Assembly (NCBI GenBank): GCA_963704725.1
Contig: OY969934.1
Location: 768,001 to 832,000, forward strand
Reading direction: 5' to 3'
DNA length: 64,000 nt
DNA from: an uncultured Actinomycetes bacterium
GTDB taxonomy: Bacteria > Actinomycetota > UBA4738 > HRBIN12
Shown here in pieces: positions 1-8,543 of this stretch. A model generated the notes under the pieces. The model worked only from the letters and a program-made list of their open reading frames with translations. It was not told where the DNA came from and made no database searches. Within the stretch, counting starts at the first letter, position 1, and every line of letters starts with the position of its first letter. Position numbers and translations under genes: made by a program.

Positions 1-865
1 GCCGGATCGAGCGTTCCTCGATCGGCGTCACGACCAGGATCGCCTCGTGCGCGCCGGCGTCCGCGAGGTCCCGCAGGTGCGCCGCGACGCGCTCCGGCGA
101 TCCCTCGATCGGCGGCGACGCCTCGGTGACCGGGCGGCCGGCGGCGTCTCGGTCCAAGACGACGAACACGCATGCGCTGCGCTCGATCTCCGCCGGGTCC
201 CGACCGACCTCGCGGGCCGCGGCCGTGACCCGCTCGCTCTCGGCCCGGAAGCCCTCCGCCGAGTTGCCGTAGAGGTCGTACCAGATGTTCCACGAGCCCA
301 CGTGGGGCAACCCGATCCGGAGCATCCGGTCCCCGCTGCTGCCGAGCATGAGCGGGACGCTTCTCCCGGGCGGCGGGCGCAGGACGGCGTCCTCCGCGGT
401 GTGGAAGCGGCCGGCGAGGGTGACCCGCTCGCCGGCGAGGAGCCCGCGCACGATGGCGAAGGCCTCCTCGAACCGGTCGACGCGGTGGTCCATCGGGATG
501 CCGAACGCTCGGAACTCGGTCTCGTTCCACCCGGCGCCCACGCCGAGCACGAGCCGGCCGCCCGAGATCTCGTCGATCGTCGCCGCCGTTCGCGCCAGGA
601 CCCCGGGCGGGTGGAAGGCGAGACAGGCGACGAGCGGTCCGAGCCGGACGCGCCGGGTCGCCGCGGCCAGCCCGGCCAGGCTGGCCCACGCGTCCCACGG
701 GCCACGCTCGGGGCGGCCGTCGTCCCGGTACAGGAGGTGGTCGCCGACCCAGATGGAGTCGAACCCCTCCTCCTCGGCCGCGCGGGCCATCGCGACGAGC
801 TCGGGCCAGGGCACGACCCGCTCCACCTCCGGGAGCTGGATCCCGACGCGGATCGGCTTGGGCAC
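1..865 (-). CDS. LLM-class (luciferase-like) flavin/F420-dependent oxidoreductase, 3' end runs off the window
   Basis: Manual translation from GTG 865: VPKPIRVGIQLPEVER...AEEEGFDSIWVGDHLL...GRLVLGVGAGW. No stop before the edge; absent from the ORF track. Confidence 0.88.
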   Translation of the reverse strand, partial: MPKPIRVGIQLPEVERVVPWPELVAMARAAEEEGFDSIWVGDHLLYRDDGRPERGPWDAWASLAGLAAATRRVRLGPLVACLAFHPPGVLARTAATIDEISGGRLVLGVGAGWNETEFRAFGIPMDHRVDRFEEAFAIVRGLLAGERVTLAGRFHTAEDAVLRPPPGRSVPLMLGSSGDRMLRIGLPHVGSWNIWYDLYGNSAEGFRAESERVTAAAREVGRDPAEIERSACVFVVLDRDAAGRPVTEASPPIEGSPERVAAHLRDLADAGAHEAILVVTPIEERSIR

Positions 866-945
866 GGCCGGGAGTGTATGCGCGAGCCGTCGGCGTCGCG
901 CTAGGGTTGTCCCCCGCACCGCGAACCCGGAAGGAGGCTCGAGCG

Positions 946-1176
946 ATGGACGAGACCACCACGCGCACGCTGTCGGACGAGGACATCGAGACCCTGGTGC
1001 CCGGATCGGCATCGACCACCGAGGAGCGCCCCCGCGACGAGGACGGCACCGACTCCAAGGACTCGGACGGCACCGACGGCGACACGACCGACCAGAAGGA
1101 CGGCGACGCGAGCGACTCGCAGGACGCCGATGGGACGGACGCCGGCGACTCGGACGGGGCCGACCAGCCTTCGTGA
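946..1176 (+). CDS. 76-aa Asp-rich repeat peptide (putative precursor/substrate peptide)
   Basis: RBS AAGGAGG at 931-937, ATG 946. Four DxDG(T/A)D units in the C-terminal half. Stop overlaps the next GTG (GTGA). Confidence 0.8.
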   Translation: MDETTTRTLSDEDIETLVPGSASTTEERPRDEDGTDSKDSDGTDGDTTDQKDGDASDSQDADGTDAGDSDGADQPS

Positions 1177-2363
1177 GCTCCCTCGCTCCACCCACCGCGC
1201 GAGGCGTGGCGGGGTCGTCCGCGCTCGCGCGCTGCGTGGGCGATCCCGCGACGTTCCTGGCCGAGTCCTGGGGGCGTCGCGCGGTGGTGCTCGCCCGTGT
1301 CGACGCCGTTGGATACGCGGACCTGCTCACGTTCGACGACGTCGATCGTCTCCTGTCGACGACCTCGCTGCGGACGCCGTCGTTCCGGCTCGTCCGGTCC
1401 GACCGCACGATCGCGGAGTCCGAGTACACGCGCTCGGGCACGACCGGATCCCGGCCCGTGGACGGCATGGCCGATCCGGCGCGGGTGTTCGCGCTCTTCC
1501 GCGAGGGGGCCACGATCGTCCTCCAGGGCCTGCATCGGTACTGGGAGCCGGTCACCGAGCTGGTCCGGGGGCTCGAGGTCGAGCTCGGCCATCCGTGCCA
1601 GGTGAACGCCTACGTCACGCCGCCCGGGGCTCAGGGGCTCGCGCTCCACGAGGACCCGCACGACGTCCTCGTGCTCCAGGCGTTCGGCCGCAAGCACTGG
1701 GAGGTGCACGCCGCCCCGGGGGAGCCGGCCCGCGACGCGGCCCAGGCCGTCGTCGAGCCCGGGGACGCCATCTACATGCCGAAGGGGACGCCGCACGCGG
1801 CGACGACGCAGGAGACGCTCTCGGGCCACCTCACCGTCGGCATCCACGTCGCGACGTGGCGGGACGTGGTGCGCGACGCTGTTTCGCACGCCGAACGGGA
1901 CCCCTCGCTCGACGAGCCCGTCCCGGCGGGGTGGACCCGCGACCCGGAGGCCGTGGGACGCGAGCTGGCGGGCCGGCTCCGGGCGCTCGCCGCCCGGCTC
2001 GAGGAGGTCGACGCGGACGAGGTGGCGCGGGCGCGCGCCGAGCGGTTCCTGTCGACGCGGAACCCGGTCCTGCGCGGTGCGCTCGTGGACCAGATGGCGC
2101 TCGACGCGATCGGCGACGCGACCGAGCTCCGCCGGCGGGCCGGCGCGGTGTGCGAGCTCCGGCCGGCGGGCGATCGGCTCGTCGTGCTCCTCGGCGACCG
2201 GCGGCTGGAGATGCCCGGCTGGCTCGAGCCCGCGATGCGCCTCGTCGCCGGGTCCGAGACGTTCCGCGTCCGCGATCTCGCCGAGGACGTCCCCGACGCC
2301 GAGAGCCGGGCCGTGCTGGCCCGGCGCCTCGTCCGGGAGGGGCTCGTCCGCCCTGCGCCGTAG
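1173..2363 (+). CDS. JmjC/cupin 2-oxoglutarate-Fe(II) oxygenase (YcfD/NO66/ROX-like)
   Basis: GATIVLQGLHRYW, CQVNAYVTPPGAQGLALHEDPHDV (HxD), GRKHW, YMPKGTPHAA (distal His). C-terminal winged-helix-like end (LARRLVREGLV). Confidence 0.9.
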   Translation: MSSLAPPTARGVAGSSALARCVGDPATFLAESWGRRAVVLARVDAVGYADLLTFDDVDRLLSTTSLRTPSFRLVRSDRTIAESEYTRSGTTGSRPVDGMADPARVFALFREGATIVLQGLHRYWEPVTELVRGLEVELGHPCQVNAYVTPPGAQGLALHEDPHDVLVLQAFGRKHWEVHAAPGEPARDAAQAVVEPGDAIYMPKGTPHAATTQETLSGHLTVGIHVATWRDVVRDAVSHAERDPSLDEPVPAGWTRDPEAVGRELAGRLRALAARLEEVDADEVARARAERFLSTRNPVLRGALVDQMALDAIGDATELRRRAGAVCELRPAGDRLVVLLGDRRLEMPGWLEPAMRLVAGSETFRVRDLAEDVPDAESRAVLARRLVREGLVRPAP

Positions 2364-2390
2364 CGTTCTCCTCCTCGTACGCTGGAGCGC

Positions 2391-3288
2391 GTGAGCCAGG
2401 GCTTCCGATGCGCCGCCGACAGCGCGGCCCGCGACGAGCCGATGCTCGGCACCGCTTCCACGGTTCGGAACTGGCTCCTGCTCGAGCATCCGGGCCCGTG
2501 GGGCGTGTCCCCGCTGCGCGACGCCCGGCTGCCGGGCGGCGTCGGCGAGCAGCTGCGGCGCGAGGCGCGCGACCGAGGTGTCCGCGTGCTCATGATCCGC
2601 CGCGTCGACCGCTCGAGCGACGGGTCGACCACCTGCTTCGCGATCCACTCCGGACCGGATGAGCCCTGGATCGAGCGGATCGAGCTCGCCAGGTTCGAGA
2701 ACGCGGCGTCGATCGACCTGGAGCGGCTGGGCGCGGGTCGGCGCCTCGGCCGAGGCGAGCGCCACGTCGGCGCGCTGTTCCTCGTGTGCACGCACGGGCG
2801 GCGAGATCCATGCTGCGCCGAGCGCGGTCGACCCTTGGCTCGGGCCATGGCGGACGCGTTCCCCGCCGAGACCTGGGAGTCGAGCCACGTGGGGGGCGAC
2901 CGGTTCGCGGCGAACCTCGTCGCGTTCCCGCACGGCGTGTACTTCGGCCGCGTCGAGCCCGCCGACGGTCCGAGCGTCGGCCGGGCCTACCTCGAGGGAC
3001 GGCTCGACCTGGCCCACCTGCGGGGGCGCTCGTGCCGGCGGCTCCGGGTGCAGGCGGCCGAGCGGTTCCTCCGTGAACGCGAGGGGCTGGACCGGCATCG
3101 ACGACGTCGACCTCGAGGACGCCGCGCCGGAGGGCGACGGGTTCGCGGCCAGGTTCCGAACGGTCGCGGGGCGCTTCGAGGTCCGCCTCGTCCGCGAGGC
3201 GTCGGCGGACGCGGTCCGGCTGACGTGCCACGGCGAGGCCGACGAGCATCCGCCCGCCTACCGCCTGCTGTCGATCGAACGCCTCTAG
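2391..3288 (+). CDS. Sucrase/ferredoxin-like (thioredoxin-fold [2Fe-2S]) protein with an apparent frameshift near 3090
   Basis: WLLLEHPGPWG, LVCTHGRRDPCC, WESSHVGGDRFAAN. The plausible C-terminus (TGIDDV...RLTCH...IERL*) continues in the frame of ORF 2659..3288. Confidence 0.85.
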
Positions 3289-4322
3289 ACCTCGTCGTCG
3301 TCGACGAACTCCGCCCGGACGCCCAGGAGCCGGACCGGCCGGTCGAGCTCGAACCGGTCCAGGGCCGCGAGCGCCCCGGCCGCGACGGCGTCCGCGCTCG
3401 CGGAGGGTTCGGCCAGCGCGGCGCCGTGGGTGCTGGTGAAGAACGGCGCGAAGCGAACCTTGACGACGACCCGGGCCACCCGCCGGGCGCCGGGTCCGAG
3501 GTCGTCGACCAGGTCCCGGGCCAGCTCCGCGACGCGGGCGCGGATCTCGTCGGGGTCGGAGAGGTCCTTCTGGAAGGTGCGCTCGCGGCCCCGGCCCCGC
3601 GGGACGTACGGCTCGTCCGTCACGACGTCGTCGCCCTCGCCGGCCCCCAGCGAACGGATCCACGGCCCGGTCCTCGGGCCGAACCGCCGGGCCAGCCGCT
3701 CCGGCTCCGACTCCGCGAGCTCACGGACCGTGCGGATGCCGAGCCCCTCGAGCTTCGCGGCCGTCTTCGTACCGATGCCCCACAGGTCGCCGGTGGGCCG
3801 GTGGCCCATGACCTCGAACCACGTGTCGGCGGTGAGCCGGAAGACGCCGCGCGGCTTGGCGAAGCCGGTGGCGATCTTCGCCCGCAGCTTGTTGTCCCCG
3901 ACGCCGATCGAGCACCACAGGCGCGTGCGCTCGAGGACCGCGCTCTGCACGGCGCGGGCGAGCCCCTCGGGATCGTCGTGCTCGGCGCCGAGGAAGGCCT
4001 CGTCCCACCCCATGACCTGGACGACCACGGGGAACGTGCGGAGCACGTCCATCACGGTCCGCGACGCGGCCAGGTACGTCTCGGCGTCCACCGGGAGGAA
4101 GACCGCGCCCGGGCATCGCTTGTACGCCGTGCGCAGCGGCATGCCCGAGCGCACCCCGAACCGGCGGGCCACGTAGTTGGCGGTCGAAACGACGCCGCGC
4201 TTGGAGGGGTCCCCGTCGCCGCCGACCACGACGGGCCGCCCGGCGAGCTCGGGACGGCGCAGGATCTCGACGGCCGCGATGAACTCGTCGAGGTCGACGT
4301 GCAGGACCCAGCGCGCCGGCAC
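3285..4322 (-). CDS. dinB: DNA polymerase IV (Y family)
   Basis: VLHVDLDEFIAAVE, GVVSTANYVARRFGVRSGMP, GWDEAFL, NKLRAKIA, LWGIG. Confidence 0.93.
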   Translation of the reverse strand: MPARWVLHVDLDEFIAAVEILRRPELAGRPVVVGGDGDPSKRGVVSTANYVARRFGVRSGMPLRTAYKRCPGAVFLPVDAETYLAASRTVMDVLRTFPVVVQVMGWDEAFLGAEHDDPEGLARAVQSAVLERTRLWCSIGVGDNKLRAKIATGFAKPRGVFRLTADTWFEVMGHRPTGDLWGIGTKTAAKLEGLGIRTVRELAESEPERLARRFGPRTGPWIRSLGAGEGDDVVTDEPYVPRGRGRERTFQKDLSDPDEIRARVAELARDLVDDLGPGARRVARVVVKVRFAPFFTSTHGAALAEPSASADAVAAGALAALDRFELDRPVRLLGVRAEFVDDDEV

Positions 4323-4341
4323 GGTCGCGATCGCCGGCCCG

Positions 4342-4827
4342 TCAGCTCGTCGGGCTCGACCCCGCCCCCGAGCGTTTGGCGGCGCTCTTCTTGGGCGCCG
4401 TGGAGCGCTTCTTGGCGCTCGATCTCTTAGCGGCCGACTTCTTGGCGCCGGACTTCCTCGTGCCGGACTTCTCGGCGCTCGACGTGCCGGGGCTCGACGT
4501 CTTCGCCGAGCCCGACGCCGCCGATCCGCCGCGCCGGGCGACCGTCGCCACGCGGTTGGCCACCTTCGGGGCGCCCTCCGCGATGGCCTTGCCGATCTGC
4601 GGGGCGCGCTTGGCCACCTGGTCGCCCGCGGCACGGACGGCCTTGCCGACGGCCGGCGGCGTCCTCGAGGCGACGCGCTTGGCCACCTCCGGGGCCCGCT
4701 TGCGGACCGCCTTGGCGATCTGGGGCGCCTTGTCCGCCACGGCCTTGCCGACGCCGGGAGCCTTCTGGGCGAGCTCCGAGACGAGGTCGCCGAGCCGGTC
4801 GACCGCTGCCTTCGAACGTGGGCTCAT
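4342..4827 (-). CDS. Basic protein with 11-residue amphipathic repeats and a histone-H1-like Lys/Ala/Ser tail
   Basis: KAPGVGKAVAD/KAPQIAKAVRK/RAPEVAKRVAS/RAPQIGKAIAE repeats; tail KKSAAKRSSAKKRSTAPKKSAAKR. Confidence 0.7.
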   Translation of the reverse strand: MSPRSKAAVDRLGDLVSELAQKAPGVGKAVADKAPQIAKAVRKRAPEVAKRVASRTPPAVGKAVRAAGDQVAKRAPQIGKAIAEGAPKVANRVATVARRGGSAASGSAKTSSPGTSSAEKSGTRKSGAKKSAAKRSSAKKRSTAPKKSAAKRSGAGSSPTS

Positions 4828-4875
4828 GTGCTCAGCGTAGGCGAAACGCCGCGACCGCGTCGAGGGTCGTGCGGC

Positions 4876-5115
4876 CTAGAGGCGCTGGGGCGCCTCCGCC
4901 CGCCGCACCAGCATCGGCTCCTCGGGCATGACCGTCCACGGCACGCCGTCGACGGTCACGACCTCGTCCTCCGGAACGAGGACGCGGACGGGTCCGGCGA
5001 GCTCGGCGATGCCCCCGTCCAGGCGCGCCGCCGAGCGGCCGCACCCGCAGACGTTCCGACCGTCGCGCATCCGCAGGAGCTCACCGCACGCGAGGCATTT
5101 CAAGAGCACGCTCAT
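4876..5115 (-). CDS. Small Cys-rich (CxxC-x12-CxC) putative Zn-ribbon protein
   Basis: GGGAGG RBS then ATG 5115; MSVLLKCLACGELLRMRDGRNVCGCGRS. An upstream GTG at 5262 is an alternative start. Confidence 0.6.
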   Translation of the reverse strand: MSVLLKCLACGELLRMRDGRNVCGCGRSAARLDGGIAELAGPVRVLVPEDEVVTVDGVPWTVMPEEPMLVRRAEAPQRL

Positions 5116-5297
5116 GGCCAGCCTCCCGGCTCGGACCGGATGAGAGGGGTCAAGCTCGGACATCGCGCGGGGCGGCGATGTCCGAGCCGGCCCTGCGAAC
5201 CGGGCGGCGCTGCCCCGGCGCCGGGCCCTGGTGGCCGGGGCTGCGGCTGCTCGAGGGCTCACCTCGCGCCGCCGTTCCTTTGGGTTCTACCCTTCCG

Positions 5298-5323
5298 GTA
5301 CCCGTGGCCCGTGCCCACGAAAC
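5298..5323 (-). promoter_or_regulatory. SigB/SigF-type promoter
   Basis: GTTT-N16-GGGTAC on the minus strand. Confidence 0.6.
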
Positions 5324-5341
5324 GTCGCGCTGATCCGGCGC

Positions 5342-6142
5342 TCAGGCTCGGGGCGGCGGCGTCCCCATGCCCCAGGCGTCCGCACCACCGTCGACGACGA
5401 TGGTCGTCCCCGTGATGTACCGCCCTCCCGTGGAGGCGAGGAACGCGATCGTGCTCGCCACCTCCTCGGGCCGGCCCAAGCGGCCCAGGGGAATGCTCCG
5501 GTTCGCCTCCTCGATCCAAGCGTCGCCGTAGGCGCGGAGTCCCTCCGTGTCGATCGCGCCGCAGGCGATGCAGACGGCCCGGATGCCGTAGCGGCTCCAT
5601 TCGATGGCCAGACCGCCGGCGAGGTTCTCGAGCGCGGCGCGAGCGGCCGAGGAGTGGATCATGAACGGCACGCCGCGGCGCGGGCTGAACCCGATGAAGA
5701 CGACCAGCCCGCCGCGAGCGGGGATCATCGCGCGCTCGGCGACCGTCCTCGTCAGGTTCCACACGGCGTCGACGTTCAGGCGGTGGACGGCTCGCCATCC
5801 CTTCGCGGAGATCTGCTCGGCGGGCGCCGCGAACTGCCCGCCGGCGTTGTTCACGAGGACGTCGATCCGGCCGAAGCGCTCGAGCACGGCGTCGACGAGC
5901 GCGTTCACCTGATCCGGCTCGCGCACGTCGATGCCGGGAAGGGCCAGGACCTCCGTCCCGCCGCGCTCGAGCTCCTCGCGCACCACCTCGACGGGCTCGG
6001 GCCGGCGGCCGCAGATGGCCACGCGAGCGCCGGTCCTGGCGAACTCGCGGGCCGTGGCGGCCCCGATGCCCGTTCCGCCCCCCGTGACGAGCGCGACCTG
6101 GTCCCGGGTGGCCTGTGGCGAGAGGGCGGGGCTCGGGTCCAT
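5342..6142 (-). CDS. SDR family oxidoreductase (enoyl/dienoyl-CoA reductase-like subgroup)
   Basis: VALVTGGGTGIG, VLVNNAGGQF, HSSAARA in place of YxxxK, VVDGG. Alternative ATG at 6154. Confidence 0.9.
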   Translation of the reverse strand: MDPSPALSPQATRDQVALVTGGGTGIGAATAREFARTGARVAICGRRPEPVEVVREELERGGTEVLALPGIDVREPDQVNALVDAVLERFGRIDVLVNNAGGQFAAPAEQISAKGWRAVHRLNVDAVWNLTRTVAERAMIPARGGLVVFIGFSPRRGVPFMIHSSAARAALENLAGGLAIEWSRYGIRAVCIACGAIDTEGLRAYGDAWIEEANRSIPLGRLGRPEEVASTIAFLASTGGRYITGTTIVVDGGADAWGMGTPPPRA

Positions 6143-6652: not shown

Positions 6653-7384
6653 TCAGGGGATCGCGACGTCCCGGAGGAAGGCGAGCGAGCGCGCGAGGAG
6701 CCGGGAGACGTGCATCTGGCTCACCCCGAGCTCGGAGGCGATCTCGCTCTGGGTCTTCTCCTCGAAGAAGCGCAGGTACAGGATGGCCCGCTCGCGCTCG
6801 GGGAGGCGCCGGATCACGGGCGCCAGGCTCTGCCACGCGTCGAGGCTGTCGAAGCGATCGTCCTCCGCGGCCAGCCGGTCGAGCGGCGACAGGTCCTCCT
6901 CGCCGGCACCGGGCGCATCGAGGGAGTCGGCCGAGTAGGCGCGCGACGCGTCGATCGCCTCGAGGACGCGCTCCTCGCGCTCGCCGACGTGCAGGGAGAT
7001 CTCGCGCACGGTGGGGGAGCGGCCGAGCTCCTGGGTGAGCGTCCCGATGGCCCGGGTCACCCGCACGGCGAGCTCCTGGATCGGCCGCGGAACGCGGATC
7101 GCCCACCCTCGGTCGCGGAGGTGTCGCTTCAGCTCACCGATGATCGTGATCGTGGCGAAGGTCGAGAACTTGACCTCGCGATCGGGGTCCAGCCGGTCGA
7201 TGGCCTTCAGCAGGGCGATCGTCGCCACCTGCTCCAGGTCCTCGTGGCTCTCGCCGCGGCCGTGGAAACGACGCGCGAGGTAGATCGCGAGCGGCCGGTG
7301 GCGAACGAGCAGGGCCTCGCGGGCCGCCTCGTCGGGAAGCCGGGAGAACAGCTCGGCGTCCGCGAGATCGGCGAGGGTGCTCAT
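6653..7384 (-). CDS. SigB/SigF/SigG family RNA polymerase sigma factor
   Basis: EDLEQVATIALLKAIDRLDPDR, GELKRHLRD, TQSEIASELGVSQMHVSRLL. Confidence 0.93.
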   Translation of the reverse strand: MSTLADLADAELFSRLPDEAAREALLVRHRPLAIYLARRFHGRGESHEDLEQVATIALLKAIDRLDPDREVKFSTFATITIIGELKRHLRDRGWAIRVPRPIQELAVRVTRAIGTLTQELGRSPTVREISLHVGEREERVLEAIDASRAYSADSLDAPGAGEEDLSPLDRLAAEDDRFDSLDAWQSLAPVIRRLPERERAILYLRFFEEKTQSEIASELGVSQMHVSRLLARSLAFLRDVAIP

Positions 7385-7776
7385 CCCGAGGGGGCTCCGA
7401 CGCCGCGTTTGCCGACGCGGACCGCCGGTCCCGAGGCCGAGAGCTCCCAGGCCACGGTGTCGGCGAGCCCCTGCAGGACCTGGGCGGCCAGGGAGTGATG
7501 GATCCCGGCGGGGGGCCACGCGCCGACCTCGGCGTCCGTCGTGCACAGCACCTCGACGCCGTCGGTGTTGGACGCGATCTCGACGGTGACGGAGGACCCC
7601 CGGGCGAGCAGGAGCTGGGCGCAGGCCTCGTCGACCGCGATGCGGAGGTCCTCGATCGCGTCGATCGTCAGATCGTTGCGAGCCGCGACGCTTCCGACCA
7701 CCGTCCGGACGACGTGCAGGAACTCCGCCCGAGCGGGCACGGTGATCCGCACGGCGTCGTCGGAGGTGGGACTCAC
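7381..7776 (-). CDS. RsbW-like anti-sigma factor (degenerate HATPase)
   Basis: ITVPARAEFLHVVR...IEDLRIAVDEAC. ATGA overlap with the sigma gene. Confidence 0.8.
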   Translation of the reverse strand: MSPTSDDAVRITVPARAEFLHVVRTVVGSVAARNDLTIDAIEDLRIAVDEACAQLLLARGSSVTVEIASNTDGVEVLCTTDAEVGAWPPAGIHHSLAAQVLQGLADTVAWELSASGPAVRVGKRGVGAPSG

Positions 7777-7827
7777 GCGCGGCCTATACTAGGCCCACGC
7801 GCAGGGGGGCTCGAAGGGGACGCGACC

Positions 7828-8163
7828 GTCGAACTGCGACTCGACACCCGAACCGAACGCGACTGGACCGTCCTCGACGTCGATGGCGAGGTCGATCTCT
7901 CCACGGCACCGACGCTCCGCTCGCGGATCGAACAGCTGATCGCTGACGGCGTCCGCAAGCTCGTCGTGAGCCTGGAAGGCGTCGGCTTCCTCGACTCGAG
8001 CGGCCTTTCCGCGCTCGTCGCCGCCATGAAAGGCATGCAGGAGAGCGGCGGGGAGTTCATCCTGGTCTGCCGCGACGAGCCGATCCTCAAGGTCTTCACG
8101 GTCACCGGCCTGGACCGGGTGTTCGCGATCCACGGCTCGCTCGCCGAGGCGGTCGCGGGGTGA
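7828..8163 (+). CDS. STAS-domain anti-anti-sigma factor (RsbV-like); start codon non-canonical or uncertain
   Basis: GEVDLSTAPTLR, VGFLDSSGLSAL, FTVTGLDRVF. The codon after the RBS-like GAAGGGGA is GTC. Confidence 0.85.
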   Translation, partial: VELRLDTRTERDWTVLDVDGEVDLSTAPTLRSRIEQLIADGVRKLVVSLEGVGFLDSSGLSALVAAMKGMQESGGEFILVCRDEPILKVFTVTGLDRVFAIHGSLAEAVAG

Positions 8164-8543
8164 TGATGGACGCGTTCCGTCTCACCATGCCCTGCAGGGC
8201 GGATCAGCTCGGGACGGCCCGTTCGTTCGCCGCGGCGGTCGCCCGGCACTACGCGATCTCGGGTGAGTCGGTCGAGGACCTGAAGCTCGCGATCTCGGAG
8301 GCGTGCGTCGATGCACTCGTGGCCGGCGCGCCGATCGACGTGTCGGCGGAGGATGCCGGGAGCTCGATCGCGTTCGCCGTGAAGGCCCCGGACGCCGCCG
8401 GCGCTCCGGGTGGTCCCGAGCGTGCTGAGCTCGACGAGCTCGGCGCGCCCGCCCGGATCCAGCTGATCCGCTCCCTGTTCCCGGACGCGACGGTGTCGGA
8501 GGACGGTCACCGCACGATCCGGTTCTCGCTCCCGCTCGGCTGA
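8160..8543 (+). CDS. Second RsbW-like ATP-binding-fold protein (degenerate)
   Basis: RLTMPCRADQLGTARSF...VEDLKLAISEAC. Overlaps the STAS gene stop. Confidence 0.75.
   Translation: MMMDAFRLTMPCRADQLGTARSFAAAVARHYAISGESVEDLKLAISEACVDALVAGAPIDVSAEDAGSSIAFAVKAPDAAGAPGGPERAELDELGAPARIQLIRSLFPDATVSEDGHRTIRFSLPLG

Follow-up and report, generated by a model that had tools for sequence, protein, structure and literature searches.

Why would a bacterium place the gene of a small, strongly acidic peptide directly in front of an iron-dependent oxygenase gene, and follow both with the gene of a putative iron-sulfur protein? The question is raised by a locus on contig OY969934.1 of an uncultured Actinomycetes bacterium (GenBank assembly GCA_963704725.1), within a stretch of 64,000 nucleotides (positions 768,001 to 832,000 of the forward strand) that is referred to here as the window and whose numbering is used throughout. 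Between positions 931 and 3288 of the window, translation of open reading frames (ORFs) and Pfam searches identify three co-directional genes, in the order peptide, JmjC oxygenase and sucrase/ferredoxin-like (Suc_Fer) protein. The reading that we favor, with a probability of roughly 0.55, is that they form a three-gene operon for the leader-guided modification of a small cytosolic acidic peptide, in the manner of peptides that are made on the ribosome and modified after translation (RiPPs), and that this modification is most likely aspartate hydroxylation. The parts of the first two genes that bear on this reading are as follows.

933-937, plus strand: ribosome-binding site GGAGG, 8 nt 5′ of the ATG at 946.
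946-1176, plus strand: precursor-like peptide gene of 76 amino acids (stop codon 1174-1176), from the ORF translation, with an isoelectric point (pI) of 4.05 and a net charge of about -21; the peptide begins MDETTTRTLSDEDIETL.
964-1002, plus strand: predicted leader recognition stretch, residues 7-19 (RTLSDEDIETLVP), the conserved block of the peptide alignment (A2) and the low-error part of the co-fold.
1036-1173, plus strand: core of 46 residues with 17 Asp, arranged as DxDG(T/A)D units that flank a central DGDTTDQKDGDASD, from the translation and alignment A2.
1173-2363, plus strand: ribosomal oxygenase (ROX)-type JmjC Fe(II)/2-oxoglutarate (2OG) oxygenase of 396 amino acids, starting at GTG 1173 or GTG 1206 (Pfam JmjC_2, PF08007).
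1647-1796, plus strand: catalytic residues H159 (1647-1649), D161 (1653-1655), K174 (1692-1694) and H208 (1794-1796), from the alignment with NO66.
2124-2360, plus strand: predicted C-terminal domain resembling a RiPP recognition element (RRE), residues ~318-396, from the secondary structure of the model, with leader contacts on 342-351 (beta3) and 373-389 (alpha3).

An earlier note, made from the letters of the sequence alone, had built its case on a strong ribosome-binding site, the 76-residue ORF, the 17 Asp in a core of 46 residues, the intact HxD...H of the oxygenase, a GTGA overlap and a gap of 27 nt, and each of these is found in the sequence. The overlap is formed by the GTG start of the JmjC gene (1173-1175) and the TGA stop of the peptide gene (1174-1176), and the gap separates the JmjC stop from the Suc_Fer start (GTG 2391). 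Residues 1-30 of the peptide read MDETTTRTLSDEDIETLVPGSASTTEERPR, and its core is composed of DEDGTD, DSDGTD, DADGTD and DSDGAD units (Asp counted on the translation).

Is the small ORF a gene at all? It could be a chance frame in GC-rich repeat DNA, or the untranslated leader of the oxygenase mRNA. The GAC-GGC-ACC repeats do keep other frames open too, and a search for sequencing runs that contain this DNA listed no RNA run and only two DNA runs, with 6-7% of the sampled words. Against this stands the finding that the same frame and N-terminal motif lie behind an ATG or GTG in 24/24 aligned loci, with a GGAGG-like purine-rich site before most of the starts (28 rows, some loci having been fetched twice). 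Conserved residues also vary synonymously, 23 loci together using 4, 4 and 2 codons for the leader Leu, Ser and Thr, respectively; the share of G and C at third codon positions is 0.95; and co-folding predicts that the product of the ORF binds the adjoining enzyme, with controls near zero. A non-coding origin is therefore scarcely credible. Because a ribosome-binding site precedes most starts, the leader codons vary synonymously and a profile search with the peptide returns at least 586 protein clusters (E <=1e-3), the ORF is, on the evidence of sequence comparison, a real coding gene, whose architecture recurs, far beyond chance, at dozens of loci and in many families of actinobacteria.

The consensus of 24 aligned peptides (A2) is M-D-E-x-T-x-R-x-L-S-D-E-D-I-x-T-V-x-P-G, followed by ...ERPxD, DxDGTD units, a central DGDxTDxxDGDAxD, further DxDGTD units and a short tail; the leader that the peptides share can be written L-S/T-D-E/D-D-I-x-T. 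The best 120 of the 586 clusters are all annotated as 'hypothetical protein', none of them has a Pfam domain, and their lengths range from 54 to 148 aa. The leader motif is present in 111 of these 120, and among those 111 the central DGDxxDxxDGD element occurs in 99 and DxDGxD occurs 3.6 times per peptide. Beyond the leader, these best-listed peptides consist of 34% Asp, 17% Thr and 17% Gly, and aromatic residues, Cys, His and Asn are nearly nil (H 0.1%, N 0.1%).

The arrangement of the three genes is widespread but patchy. Counting G000, 19 of the 41 genomes from the same order have the JmjC gene, as do 8 of the 13 other genomes of the genus. At the 19 order-level loci, tblastn with the Suc_Fer sequence of the window matched 19/19 (two of them short pieces at contig ends) and the peptide query matched 14; with the frames read directly, an Asp-rich ORF ends at or just before the JmjC start in 18/18 loci that have upstream DNA. 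A scan of species representatives yielded 18 further loci, including metagenome-assembled genomes (MAGs) of Nocardioidaceae, Nocardioides and Sporichthyaceae, and in these public MAG loci the peptide ORF is found in 16/16 with upstream DNA and the Suc_Fer gene in 17/17 that are uncut downstream. In 401 Actinomycetota genomes, evenly drawn, there are 79 JmjC matches in 76 genomes. By comparison of coordinates, a Suc_Fer gene lies directly downstream of 55/58 close JmjC matches (E <=1e-119) and of 64/79 of all matches. For the 40 loci retrieved of the 79, all 23 of the close enzyme group, which come from other families, have an Asp-rich ORF upstream and a Suc_Fer gene 5-97 nt downstream, and five more remote JmjC loci (L069-L073) have no such upstream ORF. 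The expectation of the earlier note, that homologues of the oxygenase would be preceded by a short ORF whose leader is of the L(S/T)D(E/D)DI type and whose core is a variable Asp/Gly repeat, and followed by a Suc_Fer gene, is thus borne out, upstream in every locus of the three sets (18/18, 16/16 and 23/23) and downstream in 55/58. Some genomes in these counts are unpublished, namely G011 (L002, which duplicates the public L020), G029 (L016), G037 (L019), G085, G300 and G365; L016 is part of the enzyme alignment (A1), L002 of A2 and both of the tree, and no conclusion depends solely on unpublished genomes.

Comparison with more distant enzymes shows which parts of the peptide are constant and which are not. 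Enzymes 30-39% identical to that of the window also have a small upstream ORF with the same start (MALDDDDMTT, MALNDDDIQTT, MSISDDDITNE, SITDNDITS) and a different repeat. In L058, L059, L062, L063 and L064 the core is EGPADGG(S/A)NP(E/G)GHDGGADG(T/S)A in 2-4 copies, with looser forms in L066-L068; in L060, L061 and L074 it is two copies of PTEDDENLDAPGEHSQDTGDE, here called the PTEDDENLD core. Variants that have lost the Gly or Thr of the DxD unit occur in other families (TADTTD, DADSTD, DADAAD, DGDATD) and keep an Asp at every second or third residue. Inspected by eye, Asp and Ala recur in every repeat unit of the core variants, including the Gly-free TADTTD and DADAAD. The DxDGTD repeat that had been put forward as the hallmark of the peptide therefore holds here and in the close group, and does not hold as a general feature, being one of at least three core types.

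On a tree of 64 enzymes (quick maximum likelihood, Shimodaira-Hasegawa-like approximate likelihood ratio support only, midpoint root, four identical rows dropped and rows with <300 aligned residues excluded), the core types form separate, well-supported groups. The core labels require 6 changes on this tree against a shuffled mean of 11.8, a value reached in 0/200 shuffles, with labels set by an Asp-fraction rule that mislabels L058 (GHDGGADG by eye) and L060 (PTEDDENLD by eye). A leader that stays constant beside a core that varies with the enzyme clade is the pattern expected of a substrate. The Suc_Fer gene is found in 52/52 rows with DxD cores, 5/7 rows of the GHDGGADG clade and 0/3 rows with the PTEDDENLD core. 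The GHDGGADG-type enzyme is that of Mycolicibacterium rutilum (100% identity), and relatives at 75-83% identity are found in M. flavescens, M. vanbaalenii, M. litorale and many more, where they are annotated as cupin or 'putative ribosomal oxygenase'. One Mycolicibacterium sister operon (L064, 2218-4644, in G172) consists of a peptide with MALDDDDMTT... and three copies of GEGPADGGSNP(G/E)GHDGGADGTA, then the JmjC and the Suc_Fer gene.

The oxygenase itself is readily classified. It matches PF08007 with 67.5 bits (cut-off 22, E 1e-18), and its nearest solved relatives by sequence are NO66 (E 5e-17), MINA53 and YcfD. The AlphaFold model (mean predicted local distance difference test score, pLDDT, 91) finds NO66 over its full length in Foldseek (E 3e-24), followed by MINA53 and YcfD (E 1e-16), and comprises a JmjC barrel, a helical arm and a C-terminal winged-helix-type domain, the three domains that define a ROX enzyme. 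Residues 1-14 have a pLDDT <50, and the alignment of relatives begins at residue 12-17. H159, D161 and H208 correspond to the iron triad HxD...H of NO66 and K174 to its 2OG lysine, and all four are invariant in 26 relatives and across the three enzyme clades. R67, R72 and R122 of the active-site region, N145, Y147 and others are likewise invariant across the three clades, and the constancy of the active-site region suggests one shared kind of target, an acidic one being what R67, R72 and R122 fit. Much like YcfD/RoxA, NO66 and MINA53, the enzyme thus combines the HxD...H triad and 2OG lysine with JmjC, helical and C-terminal domains. Unlike them, to which it is only 18-25% identical and whose substrates are basic ribosomal proteins (uL16 at Arg, uL2/Rpl8 at His, uL15/Rpl27a at His), it is coupled to the gene of an acidic peptide and has a patchy distribution. 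A housekeeping role as a uL16 hydroxylase, which the earlier note had named as an outcome that would count against it, was considered and rejected: the patchy distribution, the dedicated, coupled peptide gene and the predicted binding of the leader argue for another substrate.

How would such an enzyme recognize such a peptide? Co-folding of the peptide (A2) with the enzyme (A1) gave a score of 0.71 (runs 0.74, 0.69 and 0.71), against 0.02 for the best of 3 controls; the mark applied is attained by 58/80 solved complexes and by 2/110 mismatched pairs. Between runs the contact agreement was >=24% and the pLDDT of the partner >=41. The confident interface joins peptide residues 7-19 to enzyme residues 294-295, 342-351 and 373-389, with the leader lying along beta3 and against alpha3. 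The domain that is contacted has, in the model, strands at 328-332, 335-339 and 344-348 and helices at 349-360, 366-369 and 376-388, an order that agrees with the definition of an RRE in the accessible part of PMC12710340; Pfam returned no PqqD-type match in the oxygenase at E <=0.1. The co-fold that the earlier note had called for passes its controls, and it places the leader, not the core, on the C-terminal RRE-like domain. Such a placement on beta3 and alpha3 is the usual RRE mode, and it is predicted to give the locus the logic of a RiPP system. Since solved RRE-leader complexes exist, part of the pass may be owed to likeness to them.

The same interface can be read differently. One possible hypothesis is that the peptide only docks, as a regulator, an inhibitor, a carrier of Fe2+ or Ca2+, or a mimic that blocks the winged helix, and that the true substrate is elsewhere, for example a ribosomal protein. 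It would suit this hypothesis that the predicted contacts are confined to the C-terminal domain, away from the active site, that the enzyme is a full three-domain ROX whose solved relatives hydroxylate ribosomal proteins, that no protease or exporter is present near the operon, and that dense Asp motifs could bind metal unmodified. However, docking needs the leader only, whereas here the repeat changes with the enzyme clade and the leader is constant, as befits a substrate core. The system is also patchy (76/401 genomes, 8/13 congeners), unlike a housekeeping enzyme that modifies ribosomes, and binding of a leader to an RRE is, in the accessible parts of the reports cited below, a known way for such enzymes to take up their substrates. 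Mere docking is thus quite unlikely, and that the peptide is the leader-guided partner or substrate of the enzyme is the claim we hold most firmly, as distinctly probable.

From these data we infer a substrate relation, an Asp target, hydroxylation, metal binding and a role for the Suc_Fer protein, in the following scheme. The N-terminal L-S-D-E-D-I-x-T of the peptide would dock on the RRE-like domain of the enzyme in the fashion of a RiPP leader, and a linker of ~15 residues would give the acidic tandem repeats access to the Fe(II)/2-oxoglutarate site. There the oxygenase would hydroxylate several residues, most likely at the Asp beta-carbon. Asp is favored as the target because no other plausible target residue is shared by all the core types, and hydroxylation is favored because the solved or characterized relatives are side-chain hydroxylases; by this analogy, Asp hydroxylation as the chemistry is a tentative proposal, somewhat short of an even chance. 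The product would be retained in the cell with its leader on, likely as a poly-(hydroxy)aspartate peptide with affinity for hard cations (Fe3+, Ca2+). Fe(III) is strongly bound by beta-hydroxy-Asp, the iron-binding unit of non-ribosomal siderophores, and DxDG-type motifs bind Ca2+. The Suc_Fer-like protein, a frequent accessory, may keep the iron of the oxygenase reduced or act on the metal-loaded product. In its fullest form this scheme would give many soil actinobacteria an intracellular metal buffer of ribosomal origin: an RRE-guided ROX would make poly-(beta-hydroxy-aspartate), the metal would be unloaded by the Fe-S protein acting as reductase, the peptide would never be exported or cleaved, and Mycolicibacterium and other genera would have sister versions with GHDGGADG and PTEDDENLD cores; that the full metal-buffer scheme is correct is unlikely.

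The partner gene on which the last step depends has a reading frame that is interrupted in this genome.

2391-3091, plus strand: Suc_Fer-like thioredoxin-fold protein, its N-terminal 233 codons up to the frameshift (Pfam PF06999).
3090-3096, plus strand: site of the one-base insertion (~3092) that breaks the Suc_Fer frame, GGACCGGCATC, located by DNA alignment with four relatives and by protein comparison.
3092-3288, plus strand: C-terminal part of the Suc_Fer protein in the shifted frame (IDDVDLED...LTCHGEADEHPPAYRLLSIERL), with its stop at 3286-3288; it holds the invariant C279 (alignment A3).

The earlier note has a sucrase/ferredoxin-like gene follow the oxygenase after 27 nt. The family assignment stands, at 69.2 bits against PF06999 (cut-off 34.9); the stretch from 2391 to 3288 is not a single open frame, as an extra base at ~3092 intervenes. 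The frame of 2391 continues to 4430, and the conserved C-terminal 65 residues (IDDVDLED...LTCHG...) are in the frame of 2659-3288. Contigs of the two DNA runs hold short pieces of relatives, none of which bridges the frameshift site; the insertion may be an assembly error or a real mutation. The model of an intact relative (pLDDT 95.5) finds thioredoxin-like [2Fe-2S] ferredoxins of Aquifex and Azotobacter as its best PDB folds, a weak match (E 7e-3, template-modeling score 0.68, ~100 residues), and the PDB returned no match to the Suc_Fer protein by sequence. C7, C133, C141, C142, H166 and C279 are invariant in 37 Suc_Fer sequences (A3). Apd1/Aim32 carry a bis-His [2Fe-2S] cluster on the motif CX8C...HX3H, according to the accessible part of PMC8482512. 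As judged by that text, the Suc_Fer proteins here share with them the Pfam family, the thioredoxin-like ferredoxin core and the conserved C133-x8-C142 and H166, and differ in having Asp170 for the second His (C133-x8-C142...H166-x3-D170; position 170 is Cys in 1/37, L051), extra invariant cysteines (C7, C141, C279) and added N- and C-terminal parts. A [2Fe-2S] cluster with a ligand set that differs from that of Apd1 is plausible from these conserved residues.

Several observations weigh against our reading of the operon. The oxygenase is acidic overall (pI 5.7) and offers no global charge match to the peptide. In the co-fold the core was placed with low confidence (partner pLDDT 41-42), and the model is therefore silent on the residue that enters the active site. 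The GHDGGADG and PTEDDENLD cores contain one His and one Asn per repeat, both of them targets of ROX/FIH-type enzymes, and Asp is thus not the sole candidate. Two of the GHDGGADG-type peptides (L066 and L068) are without the canonical leader motif, and the modified residue and the reaction are read from sequence and prediction. The unplaced core and the His and Asn of the other repeats would suit an alternative in which the peptide is a leader-guided substrate for other chemistry, either at a Thr or at His/Asn, or by desaturation, cross-linking or backbone cleavage. Indeed, titles of papers on macrocyclization by a 2OG dioxygenase and on oxidative backbone cleavage indicate that 2OG enzymes in RiPP pathways go beyond hydroxylation. 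This alternative has to contend with the ROX/JmjC relatives NO66, MINA53, YcfD and BipG, which are described as hydroxylases, with the residues of the active-site region, whose invariance across three clades argues for one target, and with the DxDGTD cores, in which His and Asn are virtually nil (0.1% each). We regard it as unlikely, and keep to Asp hydroxylation as the preferred chemistry.

A second set of adverse points concerns the fate of the product and the third gene. The two usual features of a RiPP system that are missing here are a leader protease and an exporter: neither was seen by Pfam in the genes that flank the trio here, and neither is conserved near the operon in a comparison of 18 loci whose flanks extend to at most 6 kb, some of them ended by contig edges and all clustered from crude gene calls. 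In the same 18 loci only the JmjC and Suc_Fer clusters recur in >3, and the remaining neighbors are not conserved. The earlier note had likewise seen no adjacent protease, exporter or signal peptide. The lack of a protease and exporter implies an intracellular product; a secreted product was considered and rejected, as neither an N-terminus resembling a signal peptide nor an exporter or protease was observed. As for the Suc_Fer gene, its frame is broken in this genome; two congeners without the JmjC and peptide genes keep a close Suc_Fer (E 1e-108) alone at the orthologous locus; 47/111 Suc_Fer matches in the 401 genomes have no adjacent JmjC gene, and 30 of the genomes contain Suc_Fer alone; and the three PTEDDENLD loci have no Suc_Fer gene within ~2.5 kb. 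The solitary genes in the congeners and the 47 matches apart from JmjC rule out Suc_Fer as an obligate third component. The trio with a Suc_Fer partner survives, then, as a frequent neighborhood (55/58 in the close group) and not as an inseparable unit: since Suc_Fer is separable, the tight pair is peptide and enzyme, and Suc_Fer is a frequent helper that also occurs independently.

Pairing with a thioredoxin-like protein of Fe-S type raises one more possibility, that the trio is a sensing module in which hydroxylation, being dependent on O2, iron and 2OG, reports the state of the cell, with the Fe-S protein as redox input or output. JmjC and prolyl hydroxylases serve as oxygen sensors in eukaryotes, and both the cofactor needs of the enzyme and a product that has no route of export would be in keeping with such a role. 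Nevertheless, the 18 loci have no conserved neighbor that encodes a regulator or DNA-binding protein, tandem repeats of variable number suit bulk binding more than a switch, and Suc_Fer is dispensable in some clades. A sensing module is very unlikely.

Several further observations concern the Suc_Fer gene and its surroundings. In the two congeners mentioned above (L079, G009:C10:50800-59700, 3066-6132; and L078, G010:C9) the order is luciferase-like gene, Suc_Fer, DinB, and the Suc_Fer gene is intact in both (296-297 aa). In G009 it lies 41 nt from the luciferase-like gene, a space that in the window is taken up by the peptide and JmjC genes; a gap of this size in their place points to clean loss or gain of the peptide and enzyme as a pair. 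In a Nocardioides MAG (L037, 361-1017 and 2836-3774), besides the usual Suc_Fer gene downstream, another Suc_Fer-like gene lies upstream of that for the peptide, and several genomes of the 401-genome sample carry two Suc_Fer matches. The Suc_Fer frame of L044 (3780-5327, in G132) is 516 aa long, which may reflect a fusion or a missed stop; its C-terminal part seems, from its motif, to resemble SAM-methyltransferases. Apparent frameshifts, seen as split tblastn matches and run-on frames, affect peptide, Suc_Fer or JmjC genes in two MAGs with long contigs (L029, 5532-8809; L033, 6001-7138). In these GC-rich repeat genes, assembly error may often account for indels.

How does the operon compare with systems already described? 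The literature search turned up no characterized pathway with this trio, in agreement with the earlier note, and no published description of the peptide family or the trio, although a mention in supplementary lists (for example of RRE-PF08007 fusions) is possible. The nearest systems, likened by description from the accessible parts of the reports, are RRE-like domains fused to PF08007, with bacterial homologues in RiPP-like contexts (PMC12710340), and MppG, an RRE-bearing 2OG hydroxylase that needs the Nif11-type leader of its substrate (bioRxiv 10.64898/2026.10.04.756588). Like these, the system of the window would have an iron/2OG hydroxylase with its own peptide-recognition domain and an adjacent leader-bearing ribosomal peptide, here predicted. 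In contrast to MppG as it is described there, the leader is short and acidic (LSDEDIxT) rather than a Nif11 helical bundle, and the core is a tandem acidic repeat rather than a macrocycle. Also unlike MppG and the RRE-PF08007 systems so far as those texts go, no other maturase, protease or exporter is present, Suc_Fer is the usual partner, and the hosts are Actinomycetota.

Hydroxylation of side chains in ribosomal precursor peptides by 2OG oxygenases of the JmjC type is also represented by BipG (ornithine, in biphenomycin; PMC12707348), PhaI (PF08007; PMC8784127) and CzlI (Phe, in curacozole; PMC11575548), according to the accessible portions of these papers. Those enzymes belong, as reported there, to multi-enzyme clusters for exported antibiotics or lipopeptides, whereas here the hydroxylase is the only evident maturase and its putative substrate is a polyanion of 54-148 aa (among the best 120 listed) with many identical sites. 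CinX, the 2OG Asp beta-hydroxylase of cinnamycin (PMC11575548, same limitation of the text), modifies a single Asp in a lanthipeptide; it resembles the present enzyme in the proposed chemistry only and is a functional analogy. The logic of the enzyme, an RRE-bearing JmjC/PF08007 hydroxylase acting on a RiPP precursor, is therefore already known and is not new. What distinguishes the present system is a short acidic leader, at least three polyanionic core types, a ROX as sole maturase, a thioredoxin-like partner of Fe-S type, and no protease or exporter.

The surroundings of the operon contribute one further candidate feature.

902-907, plus strand: candidate -10 element TAGGGT of a promoter of the operon's own, proposed tentatively; CGCGCTAGGGT is common to the closest relatives.

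In 24 upstream regions, compared by eye and by 7-mer counts, a TAnnnT hexamer is found 30-45 nt 5′ of the peptide ATG; the same comparison, a weak test, recognized no shared operator-like box, including an iron-regulator box. A scan of positions 600-3600 for consensus sigma-70 promoters and terminators returned 0 sites. By Pfam, the trio has on one side the gene of a luciferase-like monooxygenase (2-841) and on the other that of a DinB-type polymerase (3288-4634), and because both are on the minus strand the trio is a transcription-direction unit of its own. NCBIfam has no match for any of the three products, and each of the three genes is single-copy in this genome. Farther along the window, a 161-aa ORF (4342-4827, minus strand) that overlaps the 5′ extension of the DinB ORF call is rich in Lys and Ala and ends in AKKSAAKRSSAKK-type repeats, presumably reminiscent of actinobacterial histone-like tails. 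By eye, the translations of 6653-7546 (minus strand), 7495-8163 (plus strand) and 8160-8543 (plus strand) resemble a set of a sigma factor and an anti-sigma antagonist/kinase.

If the proposed modification is correct, the locus would define a large, unnamed family of ribosomal peptides, with at least 586 clusters for the peptide and relatives of the enzyme in the thousands, and about 1 in 5 of the sampled Actinomycetota genomes would carry the system (76/401 by the enzyme profile, with 58 close-group matches). Many hydroxy-Asp residues in a row would show as a +16 Da ladder, and binding of hard metals is directly measurable. Cultured, non-pathogenic Mycolicibacterium species carry a sister version, which puts genetics within reach, and the pair of leader and RRE could be a handle for the site-repeated hydroxylation of designed peptides. 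For the enzyme family, bacterial ROX/JmjC oxygenases would gain a second kind of substrate beside ribosomal proteins, and the C-terminal ROX domain would be able to act as a leader-recognition element. For the organisms that carry it, the product would be a RiPP-like peptide that works inside the cell as a modified mini-protein.

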